DNA of 17,976 nt from Escherichia coli (GCF_003334385.1 NZ_QOWN01000062.1), one strand, 5' to 3'; shown: positions 2,535-8,615, counted from the stretch's first letter. The notes: generated from the letters alone by a model not told the origin. Program-made: numbers and translations.

Positions 2535-2570
2535 GGAGGTAATTTAGTTTTCTCATTATTTTCGTCAAGG
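2535..2570 (-). promoter_or_regulatory. Candidate sigma-70 promoter for the ydfA-dicB operon
   Basis: On the minus strand: TTGACG (rc of 2563-2568), 16-nt spacer, TAAATT (rc of 2541-2546), lying between the dicA-like stop and the ydfA start. Judged by eye only. Confidence 0.35.
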
Positions 2571-2655
2571 TTTTTTGATGAGAAAGCTCAAGTATTGGCG
2601 CAAGATAAAGCCAATACATTGAAATGTAAGGCTTTAAAATTTTGTGAAGGGATGA

Positions 2656-3063
2656 TTATTGATGCTTGTTGCGTTTGCGAGCCTCTAATAGCTCGGTGAA
2701 CAGGCGATTAAAATTCTCAACGCGGGCGCGGAGTTCGCTGAGTTGTGCTTGTTGCTCTGATTTAGGAAGTGCGCGATACAAACGCAGCATCTCTAACTCA
2801 TCTTCCGATAAGTCTAAGGCACTATCGAGTGAAACAGGGGGAGCTGGTGTTTTGTCCTCGTCGCCAAACAGTATCCAAGTTGGTGAACATTGCAATACCT
2901 CGGCGAGGCGATGCAAATTTTGCCCGCGCGGGGCTGTATGGTCACTTTCCCATAATGAAATTGATGAGCCAGATACGCCAGCAGCTTTGCTTAAACCGTT
3001 TTGACTTAAGCCTACCTGCTTACGTCTTTCTCTAATGCGTTGACCTAAAGTTTTCTCGTTCAT
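2656..3063 (-). CDS. dicA: DicA-like HTH (XRE-family) repressor, 135 aa
   Basis: Internal Met of track ORF 2656..3114 gives MNEKTLGQRIRERRKQVGLSQNGLSKAAGVSGSSISLWE...VLQCSPTWILFGDEDK...; the VLQCSPTWILFGDEDK block and C-terminus match DicA as I recall it. Divergent from the Cro-like gene. Confidence 0.85.
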   Translation of the reverse strand: MNEKTLGQRIRERRKQVGLSQNGLSKAAGVSGSSISLWESDHTAPRGQNLHRLAEVLQCSPTWILFGDEDKTPAPPVSLDSALDLSEDELEMLRLYRALPKSEQQAQLSELRARVENFNRLFTELLEARKRNKHQ

Positions 3064-3140
3064 ATTTAGATATCTTAATAACCCTTGACTTGAGATTCCT
3101 TGAGTGATTAGCATTGAGAAAACTCAATATTGGAGGTGCG
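3064..3140. promoter_or_regulatory. Divergent promoter/operator region between the dicA-like and dicC-like genes
   Basis: 77-bp intergenic region with three TTGAG motifs and a perfect palindrome ATTGAGAAAACTCAAT at 3113-3128 overlapping the dicC-like ribosome-binding region. Typical repressor/Cro switch geometry. Confidence 0.45.
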
Positions 3141-3368
3141 ATGTTTAAATCAGACGTAATTAATTTTTACGGTACGAAAGCCAAAGTAGCGAAAGCTGCT
3201 GGCGTTGACCCATCTGCTGTTTCTCAATGGCAAGAGCTGGTTCCTGAAGGTCGCGCGATGCGTCTACAGGAGGCATCTGGCGGCGAGCTTCTGTATGATC
3301 CCAAGGTTTATGACGAATATCGTAAGACGAAGCGGGCGGGGCGGTTGAACAATGAAAATCACTCCTGA
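3141..3368 (+). CDS. dicC: DicC-like (Cro-type) regulator, 75 aa
   Basis: ATG at 3141 with GGAGGTG Shine-Dalgarno. MFKSDVINFYGTKAKVAKAAGVDPSAVSQWQ...EGRAMRLQEASGGELLYDPKVYDEYRKTKRAGRLNNENHS resembles DicC. Divergent from the repressor. Confidence 0.8.
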   Translation: MFKSDVINFYGTKAKVAKAAGVDPSAVSQWQELVPEGRAMRLQEASGGELLYDPKVYDEYRKTKRAGRLNNENHS

Positions 3369-3873
3369 ACAGGCTCGTGAGGCTCTGGATGCCTGGATAT
3401 GTCGACCAGGAATGACACAGGAGCAGGCGACGATATTAATCACTGAAGCATTCTGGGCTTTGAAAGAGCGCCCGAACATCGATGTTCAGCGTGTCACATA
3501 TGAAGGTGGCGCGATTGATCAGCGAGCGCTTGGCGTTAATCGAGTGAAGATATTTGAACGCTGGAAGGCTATCGACACCAGGGATAAGCGTGAAAAGTTC
3601 ACGGCGCTAGTGCCTGCAATTATGGAGGCTATCCGGATTAATGATTTCAGGTTGTATCGTGAAATTACTGACGGAAAAAGCATCACGTGCATGATCGCCG
3701 GGTTAAACAAAGAATATGGCGATGTGGTGGAGTCCGGACTGCTTTTTGCTGATCCTGCCGTAGTGGATCGTGAAACTGACGAACTTATAGAAAAAGCAAT
3801 TGCTTTCAAACTTGCGTATCGACAGCAATACCAACAAAAAGCTGGATGGAATTATGAGCCTTCTTTTTGCTGA
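3352..3873 (+). CDS. Hypothetical 173-aa protein at the CII position (possibly YdaT-like); function not recognised
   Basis: Track ORF; ATG overlaps the dicC-like 3' end by 17 nt, suggesting translational coupling. Family assignment is a guess from gene position. Confidence 0.55.
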   Translation: MKITPEQAREALDAWICRPGMTQEQATILITEAFWALKERPNIDVQRVTYEGGAIDQRALGVNRVKIFERWKAIDTRDKREKFTALVPAIMEAIRINDFRLYREITDGKSITCMIAGLNKEYGDVVESGLLFADPAVVDRETDELIEKAIAFKLAYRQQYQQKAGWNYEPSFC

Positions 3874-4819
3874 ACGCCCACTGGTTATAAACACGCAGCT
3901 GGCAATGAAAATTGGCTTAAACGAAGCCATTGTTTTGCAACAACTGCACTACTGGTTGAGAGATACCAACTCCGGCATGGAATGTGATGGTGTTCGCTGG
4001 ATTTATAACACAACGGAACAATGGCTGGAACAGTTCCCATTCTGGTCAGAGTCAACGTTAAAGCGCGCGTTTGCAAGTCTGAAAACGCTGGGGCTTTTGC
4101 GTTGTGAAAAGCTCAATAAATCAAAGCGCGATATGACCAATTTCTACACGATCAACTATGGGTGCGAGCTTTTAGATGGTGGCAAATTGAGCGAATCCAT
4201 CGGTTCAAAATGCGCCGCTCCATCAGGTCAAAATGACACGATGGAAGAGGTCAAAATGAAACGCTCCATTGGTTCAAAACGACCCAATGTCATCGGGTCA
4301 AAATGGCCTGATGATCTTACAGAGAATACAACAGAGATTACTACAGAGAATAAAAACACTTTTCGTCCGGAAGCTTCGCAACCGGACCCGCAGACGACTG
4401 AACAGGATTTTTTAACCCGGAACTCCGACGCGGTTGTGTTTAGTGCGAAAAAACGCCAGTGGGGTAGCAGGGAGGATTTGGCGTGTGCGCAGTGGATCTG
4501 GGGGCGGATCGTGGGTCTCTACGAACAGGCAGCCAGTGATGATGGCGAGATCATGCGACCAAAAGAGCCTAACTGGACTGCCTGGGCCAATGACGTGCGC
4601 ACAATGCGGATGCTGGATGGCAGAAGCCACAGACAAATTTGCGAAATGTTTGGTCGGGTTCAGCGAGATCCATTCTGGGTAAAAAACATCATGAGCCCGT
4701 CAAAGCTCCGCGAAAAATGGGACGAACTGGTCATCCGCCTGGGACGTTCACCTGTACAGCGTTGTGTTAATCATATTTCTGAACCGGATACAGAAATTCC
4801 GCCTGGTTTCAGAGGATAA
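3854..4819 (+). CDS. Phage replication initiator / replisome-organizer protein (lambda O-like role), 321 aa from the ATG at 3854
   Basis: Track ORF 3800..4819; preferred start at 3854 (MSLLFAERPLVINTQLAMKIGLNEAIVLQQLHYWL, an HTH-like N-terminus). The gene contains five iteron repeats at 4196-4305, as ori-lambda lies inside O. Confidence 0.7.
   Translation: MSLLFAERPLVINTQLAMKIGLNEAIVLQQLHYWLRDTNSGMECDGVRWIYNTTEQWLEQFPFWSESTLKRAFASLKTLGLLRCEKLNKSKRDMTNFYTINYGCELLDGGKLSESIGSKCAAPSGQNDTMEEVKMKRSIGSKRPNVIGSKWPDDLTENTTEITTENKNTFRPEASQPDPQTTEQDFLTRNSDAVVFSAKKRQWGSREDLACAQWIWGRIVGLYEQAASDDGEIMRPKEPNWTAWANDVRTMRMLDGRSHRQICEMFGRVQRDPFWVKNIMSPSKLREKWDELVIRLGRSPVQRCVNHISEPDTEIPPGFRG
4196..4305 (+). repeat. 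Five direct iterons (core GGT(T)CAAAA(T/C)G) at 22-25 bp spacing inside the replication gene; candidate replication origin
   Basis: Core starts at 4202, 4226, 4249, 4271 and 4296, with flanks TCCATCGGTTCAAAATG, TCCATCAGGTCAAAATG, GAGGTCAAAATG, TCCATTGGTTCAAAACG and GTCATCGGGTCAAAATG. Followed at 4320-4356 by three ACAGAGA(A/T)TA repeats in an A-rich stretch. Confidence 0.6.
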
Positions 4820-4859
4820 GTGTTGATTTCAGGTCATGAGGTAATTTTAAGGGGGACTT

Positions 4860-5282
4860 GTGGCAAAAGTTTTTACACAAGAAGAGCGGGAAAAAATTAA
4901 ATGGCAGGTGGTGGAACTCGTGCGCCAGAGCGGCCGTGAGACGTTACGGCAACTGGAAGCTAAAACAGGTGCGACTAGATATCTGATGAGCGTTCTTGCC
5001 AGAGAGCTGGTAGCCAGTGGCGATGTATACAACTCCGGCTACGGGTTATTCCCCTCTGAACAGGCGCGTAAGGACTGGCAAAACGCCCGCAAAAAACTCT
5101 CGAGGGCAAAGGTGAAGAAACCTGCTTTGGTTGATCCGGACCTTATCTGGTCATCACCTGACGGAGAAATACGTCGCTACGACAGTCGCCTAAACATAAT
5201 CTGTCGCGAGTGCCGGAAGAGCGAAGTTATGCAGCGCATACTGGCTTTCTATCAGGGTAATTTTCAGGACGTGGCGCAGTGA
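4860..5282 (+). CDS. Hypothetical 140-aa protein (GTG start), downstream of the replication initiator
   Basis: Track ORF preceded by AAGGGGGA Shine-Dalgarno. Its stop overlaps the GTG start of the following methyltransferase ORF (GTGA). No recognisable motif. Confidence 0.5.
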   Translation: MAKVFTQEEREKIKWQVVELVRQSGRETLRQLEAKTGATRYLMSVLARELVASGDVYNSGYGLFPSEQARKDWQNARKKLSRAKVKKPALVDPDLIWSSPDGEIRRYDSRLNIICRECRKSEVMQRILAFYQGNFQDVAQ

Positions 5283-5725
5283 GTGCACCGGCAACCATTC
5301 TTGATATGTGCTGTGGCAGCCGCATGTTCTGGTTCGATAAGTCTGACGAACGGGCGATATTCAGCGATATCAGAAAAGAAGGATACACATTACGCAATGG
5401 GAGACGCTTGATTATCAGCCCTGACATTATCGCAGATTTTCGTGCATTATCATTTGCAGACGCATCTTTTTCGATGGTTGTATTAGACCCTCCGCATCTT
5501 GAGAGTGTTGGTGATAACGCCTGGATGGGAAAGAAATATGGACGGCTGAATAAAGATGCCTGGCGTGATGATTCGCGACAGAGATTTAAAGAAGCCTTTC
5601 GGGTGTTGAGGCCGCACGGCGTTCTGATTTTTTAATGGAATGAAACGCAAATACCGGTAAGCCAGATTCTGGCACTGACAGACAGAAAACCTGTTATCTG
5701 TCAACGAACAGGGAAAAAACGATAA
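5279..5725 (+). pseudogene. DNA amino-methyltransferase (motif I DMCCGS, motif IV DPPH) interrupted by an in-frame TAA at 5633-5635
   Basis: Track ORF 5279..5635 carries VVLDPPHLE, the D-P-P-[YFWH] catalytic motif of N6A/N4C methyltransferases, and a SAM-binding-like ILDMCCGS. The same frame continues after the TAA for 29 codons (WNETQIPVSQILALTDRKPVICQRTGKKR) to a TAA at 5723-5725. Confidence 0.5.
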
Positions 5726-5897
5726 AACCCACTGGATTATTTTTATGAAAGAGGCATCCAGTGAGTAGATTCGTAAGGCTACAGATACGTATATCTGAAT
5801 AATTAAATTCAGTTCTGTAAATAAAATTTAATCCTTAACCGGATGGATTTCTGCACCCTCAGAACATCAGGAGGCAGCCCGAAAGGGCGGTAGTGAA

Positions 5898-6080
5898 ATG
5901 CGAAAGTTCAAAATTATTATTGAAACGGGAATAGCTGGTGGAGATTTTGAGGATGTATTCGAAGTGGACGATGACGCAACACCTGAGGAAATTCATGACG
6001 GAGCATAAGAAATTTTCTTTAACTACTGCAATTACTCATACCACGAAATAAAAGACGATGAGGAAGAACAAAGTGGCTGA
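5898..6080 (+). pseudogene. Small acidic ORF (36 codons) with an in-frame TAA at 6006-6008 and a 23-codon in-frame continuation
   Basis: MRKFKIIIETGIAGGDFEDVFEVDDDATPEEIHDGA, stop, then EIFFNYCNYSYHEIKDDEEEQSG in the same frame. Manual translation. Confidence 0.3.
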
Positions 6081-6249
6081 TTTTTGTTCAGCTAAATATA
6101 ACATCAGTTTTGAAGAGCGGGATGAACTATTAATGGACTATGGTGAGTTACGCGGTGGAAGTGCTGCTGATGTCGAATCCTAGCGTGATGACTATGAAGC
6201 GGGAAAAACTCCGGTCGAAGCATATTGTGATGAGTGGGGCGATGAATGA
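6058..6249 (+). pseudogene. Small ORF (41 codons) with an in-frame TAG at 6181-6183 and a 21-codon acidic in-frame continuation
   Basis: MRKNKVADFCSAKYNISFEERDELLMDYGELRGGSAADVES, stop, then RDDYEAGKTPVEAYCDEWGDE. The terminal TGA overlaps the ATG of the next ORF (ATGA). Confidence 0.35.
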
Positions 6250-6533
6250 GCGAGATTAATTATCAGGAAGGGCATGAAACGGCGGGGCAAGCAAAACCAG
6301 TGGCATGGCGATATCGCTACGTGAAAAAAGGCGTTACGGACTTTCAGGGGAAGTAGTGGTCTGGTGACTGGAAATATGTACCGAAAAAAGAGGATTGTAA
6401 CGACAGGCCGAACTATCAAATTCAGGCCTTATTCACTGCCTCACCAGTCCCAGTTACATCAGAAGAACTGGTTAAAGCTGTGCACTTTTATGAACAACTA
6501 AAACGCGAAAATCCACCAACATCCGGCAACTAG
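6246..6533 (+). pseudogene. Small ORF (36 codons) with an in-frame TAG at 6354-6356 and a 58-codon in-frame continuation
   Basis: MSEINYQEGHETAGQAKPVAWRYRYVKKGVTDFQGK, stop, then WSGDWKYVPKKEDCNDRPNYQIQALFTASPVPVTSEELVKAVHFYEQLKRENPPTSGN in the same frame. Confidence 0.4.
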
Positions 6534-6787
6534 ATTAATGGATTAACTATGTCGGTTAAACGACCAGCCAACTGAAAAAGCGGAAACCTGATTACAGGTT
6601 GCCAGATAAGGCAATGAGCTACCTGGCGCGGAACGGACTGATAAGTATGGGGAATGTTTTACGATGAACCTTTAGACTAAAGAGTTTGTAACGCTATGTA
6701 AGTGATTTTTTCTGGTTTAGATATTTATATGTCCGGCCAAATTGAGGTGTGTTTAAATGTAATTGCACATTGATTGTAGGAGGAATA

Positions 6788-6967
6788 ATGAAAAACGCAT
6801 TGCAGTTTTTGTTTGTTGCGTTCTGGTTGTTCGCATCATGTATGCCCATCATCTTCACAGCAAGGTATATGGAAAAAGTTGATGTTTTGATATTAATATT
6901 TGGATATATAAATGCCCTTTTTTTAGGGGTGTTCATGGCGGTCATGTGCATTGAATACTGGCGGTAA
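6788..6967 (+). CDS. Small hydrophobic protein, 59 aa, two predicted transmembrane segments
   Basis: ATG at 6788 with AGGAGG at 6778-6783. MKNALQFLFVAFWLFASCMPIIFTARYMEKVDVLILIFGYINALFLGVFMAVMCIEYWR. No antisense gene explains it. Confidence 0.45.
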   Translation: MKNALQFLFVAFWLFASCMPIIFTARYMEKVDVLILIFGYINALFLGVFMAVMCIEYWR

Positions 6968-7301
6968 ATACAGCGAACTCCATTGGTTTAGTTGGATATT
7001 TACTGTGCTGGACAAAAACGGTTTGCGGGGAAATCTTAGTTAAGTAGAATGACTGCGGGTGCTTGAGGCTATCTGCCTCGGGCATGGACACCAACGGCAG
7101 ATAGAGAAAAGCCCCAGTTAACATTACGCGTCCTGCAAGACGCTTAACATTAATCTGAGGCCAATTTCATGCTAGACACATGTAGGTTAGCCTCTTACGT
7201 GCCGAAAGGCACGGAGAAGCAGGCTATTGTTAACACCAAGCTGTAATGTCCCCTTTGAACCATTCTAAAATGTCCCCAGACAATTCTCTGGGGGATTTTT
7301 C

Positions 7302-8615
7302 ATGATCAAAGAGACTGTTACGATGAGTCATAAGGAACTCCACCGACTTCAGATTATTCAGGAACAAGCTGCGGCACGCATTGGCATTTCTATTCGGCAG
7401 GTTAAACGTCTGGTGCAACGGTATAGAAATGAAGGGCCTTCTGGTCTGGTTTCCCACCGACGTGGAAAGCGTCCTAATAATTCCTTTTCTACTGAATTCA
7501 GAGCAACAGTAATTTCACTCCTCAAAGGCCGTTACGCTGATTTTGGACCTACGTTTGCGTGCGAAAAATTGCGCGAGATACACGGTTTATCTTTATCCGT
7601 TGAAACTCTCAGAAAGTGGATGATAGAAGAGGGGTTATGGCGTGAACGCCGTCGTAAAATTGCCCGTATATATCAACGCCGCATGCGACGACCATCTTAC
7701 GGTGAACTGATCCAGATTGATGGCTCACCTCATGACTGGTTTGAAAATCGAGGCCCCAGATGTACACTGATCGTTTTCATTGATGATGCCACCAGTGCGT
7801 TGATGGCGTTGCGTTTTGTGCCTGCTGAAACAACCCGGGCTTACATGGAAACCCTCCGGGGTTACCTTAATGATCATGGCGTACCGCTCGCTCTCTACTC
7901 TGATAGACACAGTATATTCAGGGTAAATAACCCAGAGCGGGAAGGTGAGCTGACCCAGTTCACTCGTGCGATAAAGACACTGGGCATCGAGCCAATCCAT
8001 GCCAACAGCCCGCAGGCAAAAGGGCGGGTAGAGCGCGCCAATCAGACACTACAGGACAGGCTGGTCAAAGAAATGCGGCTTCAGAATATCAGTGATATTG
8101 AAACAGCAAATGCATGGTTGCCGACCTTTATTGAAGCCTATAACAACCGGTTCGCTACGTCGCCTCGTACTACTGATAATGCTCATCTTGATGTGCACCA
8201 TTCTGAAGAGGAACTGGGTTATATCTTCAGCCTACAGGCGAAGCGCGTTCTGTCTAAAAATCTCACTTTCCAGTACAAAAGCAGTGCGTTTCAGGTACGC
8301 AGTGAGGGCCGGGGATATCGACTTAGGCATTCGGTTGTTACTGTATGCGAGAACTTTGACGGTGAAATTAACGTTCTGTATGACGGGAAAGCGCTGGGCT
8401 GGGAAAAGTATGTTGATGGCCCGGAGCCTATACCACTGGATGATGAAAAGAGTGTCCATGAACGAGTGGATAATGCCCGTATTGATTTACGCTCAAAATA
8501 CTATGTTAAACCTAAAGCTGACCATCCCTGGCTTACGCGCCGAACGCAAAGTCATCAGCAAGTTAAGCCCCCGAAGTTACCTAAAAAGAAGCCTGATCCC
8601 GATAAAAAAGATTGA
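7302..8615 (+). CDS. IS-element DDE transposase (integrase-core/rve type with N-terminal HTH), 437 aa; family uncertain (IS481-like or ISNCY-like)
   Basis: Track ORF with HTH-like N-terminus (IGISIRQVKRLVQRY) and candidate DDE residues in IQIDGSPHDW, IVFIDDATSA and GRVERANQTLQD. Ends of the element could not be defined. Confidence 0.8.
   Translation: MIKETVTMSHKELHRLQIIQEQAAARIGISIRQVKRLVQRYRNEGPSGLVSHRRGKRPNNSFSTEFRATVISLLKGRYADFGPTFACEKLREIHGLSLSVETLRKWMIEEGLWRERRRKIARIYQRRMRRPSYGELIQIDGSPHDWFENRGPRCTLIVFIDDATSALMALRFVPAETTRAYMETLRGYLNDHGVPLALYSDRHSIFRVNNPEREGELTQFTRAIKTLGIEPIHANSPQAKGRVERANQTLQDRLVKEMRLQNISDIETANAWLPTFIEAYNNRFATSPRTTDNAHLDVHHSEEELGYIFSLQAKRVLSKNLTFQYKSSAFQVRSEGRGYRLRHSVVTVCENFDGEINVLYDGKALGWEKYVDGPEPIPLDDEKSVHERVDNARIDLRSKYYVKPKADHPWLTRRTQSHQQVKPPKLPKKKPDPDKKD

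Follow-up and report, generated by a model that had tools for sequence, protein, structure and literature searches.

The stretch of Escherichia coli DNA analyzed here (GCF_003334385.1 NZ_QOWN01000062.1; 17,976 nucleotides (nt), hereafter the window) carries a lambdoid prophage at the Qin site, adjoining rspB, and shows 99.8% identity to E. coli SCU-104. Positions 3141-5635 of the window are probably the early rightward (pR-type) operon of a lambdoid prophage of the mEp460 type. The operon follows lambda cro-cII-O-(P)-ren gene for gene, and in it the host DnaB-DnaC would be recruited by the replication initiator, likeliest via a short C-terminal tail of the kind found on host DnaT. An earlier reading made from the DNA alone (hereafter the sequence-only reading) had described the two proteins encoded on either side of the initiator, of 173 and 140 amino acids (aa), as unnamed. 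Both are in fact named on record, the former as "toxin YdaT family protein" in RefSeq and as "cII" or "CII-like transcriptional activator" in phage records, and the latter as "DUF977 family protein" in RefSeq and as "LygF" or "Ren-like exclusion protein" in phage records. The finding is thus real but ordinary, since both proteins belong to known families and were already annotated in identical phage modules.

The open reading frames (ORFs) and their overlaps (3352/3368, and GTGA at 5279-5282) lay exactly where the sequence-only reading had put them. The 173-aa ORF runs on the + strand from ATG 3352 to the stop at 3873, its first 17 nt lying inside the DicC/Cro-like gene (3141-3368). For the initiator gene, whose mechanical ORF opens at TTG 3800, the best start is ATG 3854, the one used in RefSeq and three phage records; the gene then spans 3854-4819 (321 aa) and shares 20 nt with the 173-aa gene. 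The 140-aa ORF extends from GTG 4860, preceded at a distance of 6 nt by a GGGGG ribosome-binding site, to the stop at 5282, and its TGA (5280-5282) overlaps the GTG (5279-5281) of the ORF 5279-5635. No terminator-like site was detected between genes on the + strand of 3141-5600, and the earlier proposal of one tightly packed rightward operon downstream of the Cro-like gene was supported.

The segment 2600-5700 was present at ≥80% coverage in 549 of 5426 complete E. coli genomes, and every product matched a protein family, so that the ORFs were regarded as real genes. The block from DicA to DUF977 showed 97-98% DNA identity to the isolated phages mEp460 and HannyBb, and PhiR42_1 matched the window at 99.7% DNA identity from 3240 onward. 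Given this near-identity, the block represents an mEp460-type immunity and replication region and is not peculiar to the window strain. The four ORFs are intact in the window, with proteins 93-100% identical to their phage counterparts, and in mEp460, HannyBb and PhiR42_1 no loader gene intervenes in the DicA-DicC-YdaT-O-DUF977 block.

Replication initiator, helicase loading and the DnaT-type tail

The initiator matched PHROG 391 ("replication initiation O-like") at E 4.5e-91, and its residues 147-294 aligned with residues 135-270 of lambda O at 34% identity (E 2e-26); the C-terminal domain of lambda O is its P-binding domain. No significant alignment was obtained with lambda O 1-134, the iteron-binding domain, and the Pfam search of the initiator returned no significant family; its N-terminal domain matched other PHROG initiator families. 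A putative origin lies inside the initiator gene (Table 1), where the five iterons compared with 0.10 expected and none of 200 shuffles reached five. The iterons are kept in mEp460, HannyBb and PhiR42_1, and the GC content falls to 0.35 at 4310-4369, next to them. The arrangement is analogous to that of lambda, which has four iterons inside O, and by this analogy the N-terminal domain of the initiator would bind the iterons and open the AT-rich element, as lambda O does.

The operon shares with lambda cI-cro-cII-O-P-ren the divergent repressor and Cro followed by a lysogeny regulator, an initiator with an in-gene iteron/AT-rich origin, and a Ren-family gene. True homologues are shared in the initiator C-terminal domain and in Ren (hhalign 95%). 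Unlike lambda, the window operon has no P gene and bears an unrelated fold (YdaT) in the CII slot, the N-terminal domain of the initiator and the iteron sequence differ, and the last ~29 residues of lambda O are replaced by a DnaT-type tail.

The window operon encodes neither a P-type nor a DnaC-type loader. A scan of viral contigs for the C-terminal motif of the initiator yielded at least 120 loci, which are not independent and hold 67 distinct initiator sequences, and 95 of the viral loci listed had enough downstream sequence for gene order to be counted. Among the matches listed, the DUF977 gene followed the initiator after 40 nt, as in the window (type B), in 42 of the 95 loci, and a DnaC-like gene, usually followed by a YdaW-like gene, came 6 nt after the initiator in 43 (type A); a lambda P homologue stood near the initiator in none of the 120 listed. 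DUF977 lay downstream of the DnaC-like gene within 2 kb in 28 of these 43 type A loci, and likewise in Rac-SA53 and Shigella phage 75/02 Stx, where the loader is present with DUF977 downstream. The YdaU-YdaV genes of Rac-SA53 and the "primosomal protein I"-DnaC genes of 75/02 Stx follow the same operon grammar as the window, and the initiator tail of 75/02 Stx is identical; what the window module lacks, unlike them, is the DnaC-like loader and the YdaW-like protein.

Since two isolated phages, mEp460 and HannyBb, have the loader-less arrangement, it was taken to be a working design. With no phage loader, the initiator itself would have to bring the host DnaB-DnaC to the origin, and we infer that loader-less modules must rely on host DnaC and DnaB.

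The part of the initiator that would most likely serve as the handle for this is its tail. The protein ends in …VNHISEPDTEIPPGFRG, matching the extreme C-terminus of host DnaT, and the tail matched PDB entries 2ru8, 6aep and 9zbt_D as well as positions 160-179 of the NCBIfam DnaT profile. The remainder of the initiator showed no DnaT likeness (NCBIfam NF002770 DnaT, 16.2 bits against a cut-off of 201), and the window initiator is thus not a DnaT but shares the tail alone. The likeness to E. coli DnaT and dnaT-dnaC therefore comprises the near-identical last 20 residues and, in type A, a tail gene followed within 6 nt by a DnaC homologue; unlike DnaT, the window protein lacks the DnaT N-terminal domain, and a three-helix C-terminal domain was not detectable in it; its role is that of an origin-specific initiator rather than of a restart factor. 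The RAST-style annotation "Primosomal protein I" overstates this relationship.

The tail occurs on initiator bodies that are unrelated to one another by BLASTP at E 1e-4, namely a lambda-O-like body, another of a different type, and a third that has a genuine DnaT C-terminal domain. It was also found (…EPD[ST][EQ]IPPGFRG, then the stop) on a plasmid RepA of the Pfam RPA family, seen on a Pantoea plasmid and on pGN2-KPC (IncX6/IncU), and on another, different Rep, the replication initiation protein of a Serratia plasmid. All tail carriers share one task, that of nucleating replisome assembly on DNA. Among species-representative genomes, DnaT orthologues whose bodies are 73-76% identical keep a 12-residue tail motif exactly, with dnaC next at -1 to +2 nt. 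Both host dnaT and the type A phage genes have the stop codon of the tail within 6 nt of a dnaC-type start, and type A phages encode a DnaC-like protein with 51% identity to that of the host. At the DNA level, only 40 of the last 66 nt are identical to dnaT, and 6 of 10 identical residues in the last 12 codons are encoded by different synonymous codons, which argues for selection on the tail peptide rather than recent DNA transfer.

The spacer that separates the initiator gene from the DUF977 gene recurs nearly base for base behind tail-bearing initiators with unrelated bodies, and hence the tail codons, the spacer and the DUF977 gene move as one mosaic block. That the spacer is a plain deletion scar of a dnaC-ydaW cassette was not supported, as it aligns with neither flank of the type A arrangement.

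From these sequence comparisons we tentatively propose that the tail, …(R/K)(C/D)VN..SEPD(S/T)(E/Q)IPPGFRG, may be a portable recruitment peptide for enterobacterial DnaB-DnaC that was acquired by unrelated phage initiators and plasmid Reps, such that the host helicase is loaded without a loader of their own; we hold this to be a serious possibility, though somewhat short of an even chance. In DnaT itself, the tail would be the element, long looked for, that hands the preprimosome to DnaB-DnaC. A 2026 cryo-electron microscopy (cryo-EM) study of the preprimosome states that DnaB/DnaC recruitment "remains unknown" (PMC13377028). In the literature searched, neither IPPGFRG nor PPGFRG was found, nor any statement on the function of DnaT 160-179. 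The presence of a DnaT tail on phage and plasmid origin-binding initiators, whose shared job is to start replisome assembly, makes it a simple and testable candidate for a DnaB-DnaC recruitment element, and if true, recruitment by the tail would explain how roughly half of the listed phage modules manage without their own loader.

The YdaT-type regulator and the Ren-type protein

The sequence-only reading had suggested that the 173-aa protein may belong to the YdaT group of functional CII analogues, and this was borne out by PHROG 163 ("CII-like transcriptional activator", E 5.5e-40, residues 1-155), by Pfam PF06254 YdaT_toxin (i-E 6.5e-5, residues 59-131), and by fold matches to 8bt1 and 3c4r. 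In a Foldseek search with the AlphaFold2 (AF2) model, the top three PDB matches were 8bt1_C and 8bt1_A (CP-933P YdaT) and 3c4r_C, with a probability of 1.00 and template-modeling (TM) scores of 0.53-0.64; the next PDB match after these three YdaT structures had a probability of 0.11, and all other matches were at ≤0.41. Residues 1-110 were modeled with a predicted local distance difference test (pLDDT) score of 68-87 and include helices 5-16, 23-35 and 57-72, with a 21-residue loop corresponding to the long alpha2-alpha3 loop. Furthermore, R70-W71 is invariant in the family alignment and aligns with the DNA-contacting Arg-Trp of Rac YdaT (PMC9986795, PMC11879457). As judged from these profiles and the predicted fold, the 173-aa protein is a YdaT-family regulator.

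It resembles YdaS/YdaT of Rac and CP-933P (8bt1, 3c4r, PF06254) in that its gene directly follows and overlaps a Cro-like gene, and in the POU-like helix-turn-helix (HTH), the long alpha2-alpha3 loop, the recognition-helix Arg-Trp and a predicted helical C-terminal region. In YdaT proteins the C-terminal helix builds a tetramer through a four-helix bundle. It is nevertheless only 22-28% identical to the characterized YdaT proteins and is longer (173 aa against about 140-160), and in place of their single long alpha6 it has two predicted C-terminal helices of low confidence (111-129 and 135-163, pLDDT <50, in a monomer model). BLASTP against lambda CII gave no alignment at E ≤ 100, and the likeness to lambda CII would be functional and positional only. 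In NCBIfam, no model matched either the 173-aa or the 140-aa protein.

The toxin framing of YdaS/YdaT has been superseded, as YdaT has been characterized as a tetrameric POU-domain transcription factor (PMC9986795, PMC11879457, PMC8630535). It recognizes an inverted repeat where ydaS meets ydaT and turns on an antisense promoter that serves the repressor gene (PMC9986795, PMC11879457). YdaS and YdaT are accordingly Cro and CII analogues, and the toxicity of YdaT is a regulatory side effect via rcsA (PMC9986795, PMC11879457, PMC5917428, PMC8630535). Unlike in Rac and CP-933P, the canonical site TTGATT-N6-AATCAA was not found in the window, where it had no match anywhere with fewer than two mismatches. 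The best candidate, TTGAACAATGAAAATCAC, has three mismatches and occupies the same position as the Rac YdaT-box ATGATTCATGAAAATCAA (PMC11879457), but the match partly reflects coding constraint; an inverted-repeat scan of 2600-3950 gave no obvious alternative operator at the dicC/ydaT junction. By analogy with Rac and CP-933P YdaT, a tetramer of the YdaT-like protein on a site at the dicC/ydaT junction would drive an antisense promoter toward the DicA repressor and thereby bias the phage toward lysogeny. The label "toxin YdaT" should here be read as a CII-analogue regulator.

The 140-aa protein, in which the sequence-only reading had recognized no motif, matched Pfam DUF977 over its full length (E 1.1e-28, residues 1-136 against a 134-position model) and PHROG 142 "Ren-like exclusion protein" (E 1.6e-47). 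Comparison with lambda Ren by hhalign gave 95% probability and E 3e-8, covering the winged helix-turn-helix (wHTH) and the C-terminal motif, and BLASTP alone recovered the C-terminal motif at E 2e-6. In the AF2 model, a winged helix and a long helix span residues 7-85 (pLDDT >90 for 11-80), followed by a disordered linker (87-107) and a short helical C-terminus; DUF977 was identified as a winged helix in one earlier paper (PMC2686095). The residues Y107, N112, C115, E117, C118, R119, S121, M124, R126 and F130 are invariant in DUF977, a small family with 98 clusters among 1.84 billion representative proteins. Foldseek searches of PDB and BFVD with the model returned only generic wHTH proteins such as GntR and MarR, with nothing informative on the C-terminal motif, and a PDB sequence search gave only chance-level matches. 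No P, DnaC or IstB match was found in Pfam, NCBIfam or PHROG, and the sequence contains no GxxxxGK[ST] Walker A motif. In the literature, "LygF" occurred only as a gene label in Salmonella genome notes, with no function attached.

The gene order in lambda is O-P-ren, in the window O-like and then DUF977, and in its relatives O-like, DnaC-like, YdaW-like and then DUF977. Because the protein is a Ren homologue and lambda has the order O-P-ren, it stands in the Ren slot and not in the P slot, contrary to the loader position that the sequence-only reading had assigned to it; profile and model agree that the 140-aa protein is a DUF977 winged-helix homologue of lambda Ren in Ren's position, and DUF977/LygF is accordingly to be placed in the Ren family. 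It shares with lambda Ren (DUF977, PHROG 142) the motif N.I..ECR.S..M.R.LA.Y, the wHTH domain and a place immediately behind the replication genes; it differs in size (140 against 96 aa), in an extra helix and a ~20-residue disordered linker, and in having CxxC (C115, C118) where lambda Ren has FKEC. Ren confers resistance to Rex exclusion, a phenotype known only for lambda Ren, and lambda Ren coexists with P and is dispensable for replication. By analogy, the window protein would be a non-essential accessory, probably shielding the phage from Rex-type exclusion, and not a replication factor. The sequence-only reading had held that clear homology to lambda CII and to P/DnaC-type loaders would make the module a routine one; such homology was found for neither protein, yet the module is routine anyway. 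Profile searches and structure prediction, which it had put forward for both products, bore out its guess at YdaT but showed the 140-aa product to be a DUF977 wHTH protein and not a loader.

Alternative explanations

Three other accounts of the loader-less operon were weighed against recruitment of DnaB-DnaC by the initiator tail. The 140-aa protein could be a new helicase loader or loader adaptor replacing lambda P/DnaC, given that its gene directly follows the initiator, where lambda has P, and that the gene and the 40-nt spacer are tightly conserved. Since DUF977 coexists with a DnaC-like loader in related operons (28 of 43 such loci among the matches listed, Rac-SA53 and 75/02 Stx), however, it does not replace the loader; its homology to Ren, which coexists with P, and its predicted winged helix with no Walker motif and no DnaC/IstB/P family match point the same way, and we consider a loader function very improbable. 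Only slightly more credible, and still highly unlikely, is that the module is a decayed remnant of a cryptic prophage from which a dnaC-ydaW cassette was deleted, so that the operon no longer replicates and the missing loader is meaningless. In type A relatives a DnaC-like and a YdaW-like gene do separate the initiator from DUF977, and the prophage has other lesions (the methyltransferase premature stop, the ISNCY insertion and the 2.1-kb ydfU/ydfT loss), but mEp460 and HannyBb, both isolated phages, have the identical loader-less order, it recurs in 42 of 95 viral loci (among the matches listed) with several initiator bodies and always the same conserved 40-nt spacer, and all four ORFs are intact. 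A better claim, though an unlikely one, is that the tail recruits the restart primosome (PriA and/or PriB), the initiator standing in for DnaT on PriA at the opened origin. PriA and PriB are the only structurally documented partners of DnaT, the DnaT C-terminal domain docks on PriA via a conserved hydrophobic interface (PMC13377028), and the tail is hydrophobic (IPPGF). On the other hand, the published interface belongs to the three-helix C-terminal domain, which is absent from most tail-bearing initiators, and gene adjacency ties the tail to dnaC rather than to priA or priB. Moreover, DnaB loading at lambdoid origins and on iteron plasmids is classically independent of PriA; these points are not decisive.

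As for the regulator, RefSeq and Pfam both carry the name "toxin YdaT", and Rac YdaT is toxic on overexpression (PMC11879457), which would allow DicC and the 173-aa protein to be a YdaS/YdaT-type toxin-antitoxin pair. We give this hardly any credence, as YdaS/YdaT have been published as Cro/CII analogues whose toxicity is a side effect through rcsA (PMC9986795, PMC11879457, PMC5917428, PMC8630535), the gene order and overlap fit cro-cII, and the predicted fold is a DNA-binding POU domain.

Several observations weigh against the interpretation favored here, that of an early operon whose initiator recruits host DnaB-DnaC by its tail. Much of the tail conservation among phages could be due to mosaic recombination, the tail travelling with the downstream block, and the partner of the tail could be PriA, PriB or single-stranded DNA instead of DnaB-DnaC; the authors of the 2026 cryo-EM study favor, as a speculation, the DnaT N-terminal domain as the part that recruits DnaB/DnaC (PMC13377028). 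The proportions of types A and B are only indicative, coming from at least 120 non-independent loci with 67 distinct initiators. With regard to the 173-aa protein, single-sequence YdaT scores were weak (Pfam E 6.5e-5; PDB phmmer to two YdaT crystal structures, E 0.06-0.08), a stronger YdaT profile match (E 5e-10) used an alignment including Rac YdaT and is hence partly circular, and the AF2 model was moderate, with a mean pLDDT of 67 and values under 50 for the last 63 residues. Statistically, the operator candidate (3345-3362) could not be told from chance (16 matches against 18.9 expected). In addition, the prophage has decayed downstream (methyltransferase premature stop, insertion sequence (IS), ydfU/ydfT loss), and its own module may never fire.

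Features of the region and comparison with K-12 Qin

The features are summarized in Table 1.

Table 1. Features of the early region and their positions in the window
Feature	Position	Strand	Basis and remarks
DicA-type immunity repressor (cI position), 135 aa	2656..3063	-	NCBIfam NF007257 DicA, 238.8 bits against a cut-off of 101; RefSeq 408-nt coding sequence; mechanical ORF reaches 3114
Divergent regulatory region	3063..3140		Palindrome TATTTAGATATCTTAATA at 3063-3080; pR-like promoter TTGACT-18-TAGCAT at 3085-3114; consensus matches, putative function from position
DicC/Cro-like regulator, 75 aa	3141..3368	+	NCBIfam NF007282 DicC, 165 bits against a cut-off of 130; PHROG 409, E 1.4e-27; 100% identical in mEp460
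Candidate YdaT box TTGAACAATGAAAATCAC	3345..3362	+	Spans the ydaT-like start codon; 3 mismatches to TTGATT-N6-AATCAA; weak
Divergent YdaT-family transcription factor, predicted functional analogue of lambda CII, 173 aa	3352..3873	+	Profiles and AF2 fold match
Segment deleted in K-12 Qin	3632..8430		BLASTN of K-12 Qin against the window; 4.8 kb; explains ydfX and ydfW
Replication initiator, 321 aa: wHTH-type N-terminal domain, origin-encoded linker, lambda-O-like C-terminal domain, DnaT-like tail	3854..4819	+	PHROG 391
Five iterons RGKTCAAAAYG, fuller consensus about CCATYRGKTCAAAAYG	4202..4305	+	Spacing 23, 23, 23, 24 bp; putative origin inside the initiator gene
AT-rich 12-mer ACAGAGAATACA, three in tandem, next to the iterons	4319..4354	+	Likely DNA-unwinding element, by analogy with ori-lambda
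DnaT-type tail, QRCVNHISEPDTEIPPGFRG codons and stop	4757..4819	+	14/20 identical to E. coli DnaT 160-179
40-nt spacer with ribosome-binding site, type B junction	4820..4859	+	Between the initiator and DUF977 genes
DUF977/LygF, lambda Ren homologue, 140 aa	4860..5282	+	Winged helix, long helix, disordered linker, motif YDR..N.IC.ECR.S..MQR.LAFY
Orphan class I S-adenosylmethionine (SAM)-dependent DNA methyltransferase, cut short	5279..5635	+	In-frame TAA at 5633-5635; PHROG 954, E 6.7e-58, profile positions 52-165 of 229

K-12 Qin lacks the module, in line with the sequence-only reading; the BLASTN comparison showed window 3632-8430 to be missing there. The K-12 deletion junction reads GGAGGCTA/CCACTGG and lies between the imperfect 9-bp repeats GGAGGCTAT and GGAGCCTAT. 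What had been regarded as integrase remnants in K-12 Qin proved to be of another nature: K-12 ydfX has the same ATG and the same 17-nt dicC overlap as the 173-aa gene and consists of its first 93 codons (5' 280 nt) plus three junction codons, and K-12 ydfW is the in-frame 3' end (the last 49 codons) of the ISNCY transposase ORF 7302-8615. K-12 YdfX and YdfW are thus deletion debris from a window-type module and an IS transposase. In the window, this ISNCY-family transposase ORF is uninterrupted (437 aa) and lies in the nin-like region; the SCU-104 copy is flagged as partial by RefSeq.

In a megablast comparison, neither the DicA gene nor the 5' portion of dicC (window 2536-3239) aligned to K-12 Qin, despite the DicA-family score of the protein. 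Judging from this divergence, the window prophage may differ from K-12 Qin in immunity specificity and share that of mEp460 and HannyBb.

Downstream of DUF977, the methyltransferase also matched the PADLOC models MTase_II and oMTase. Its frame reads on past the TAA as WNETQIPVSQ…, and its relatives have 157-164 aa; RefSeq annotates the gene as intact. The TAA is probably a nonsense mutation, and a poly-T frameshift as the cause of the truncation was ruled out by the in-frame TAA. The methyltransferase was the only product with PADLOC matches, the YdaT-like protein, the initiator, the DUF977 protein and the 205-aa ORF described below having no defense-system match. Between 5700 and 7300 only short ORFs were seen, and in SCU-104 RefSeq annotates pseudogenes there, namely a DUF7167 gene interrupted by an internal stop and a hypothetical gene disrupted by a frameshift. 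At window 11126/11127, ~2.1 kb of K-12 and SCU-104 sequence is missing, corresponding to ydfU and most of ydfT (Q-like antiterminator), with a junction …CTGCTTTT/CTGGTAACA bearing CTG microhomology; late-gene antitermination has therefore probably been lost in the window prophage.

Left of the repressor lies a 205-aa ORF (1732-2349, - strand), which had no match in NCBIfam or PADLOC and matched PHROG 35040, of unknown function, over its full length (E 5.7e-150). HannyBb carries an ORF of equal size at the same place.

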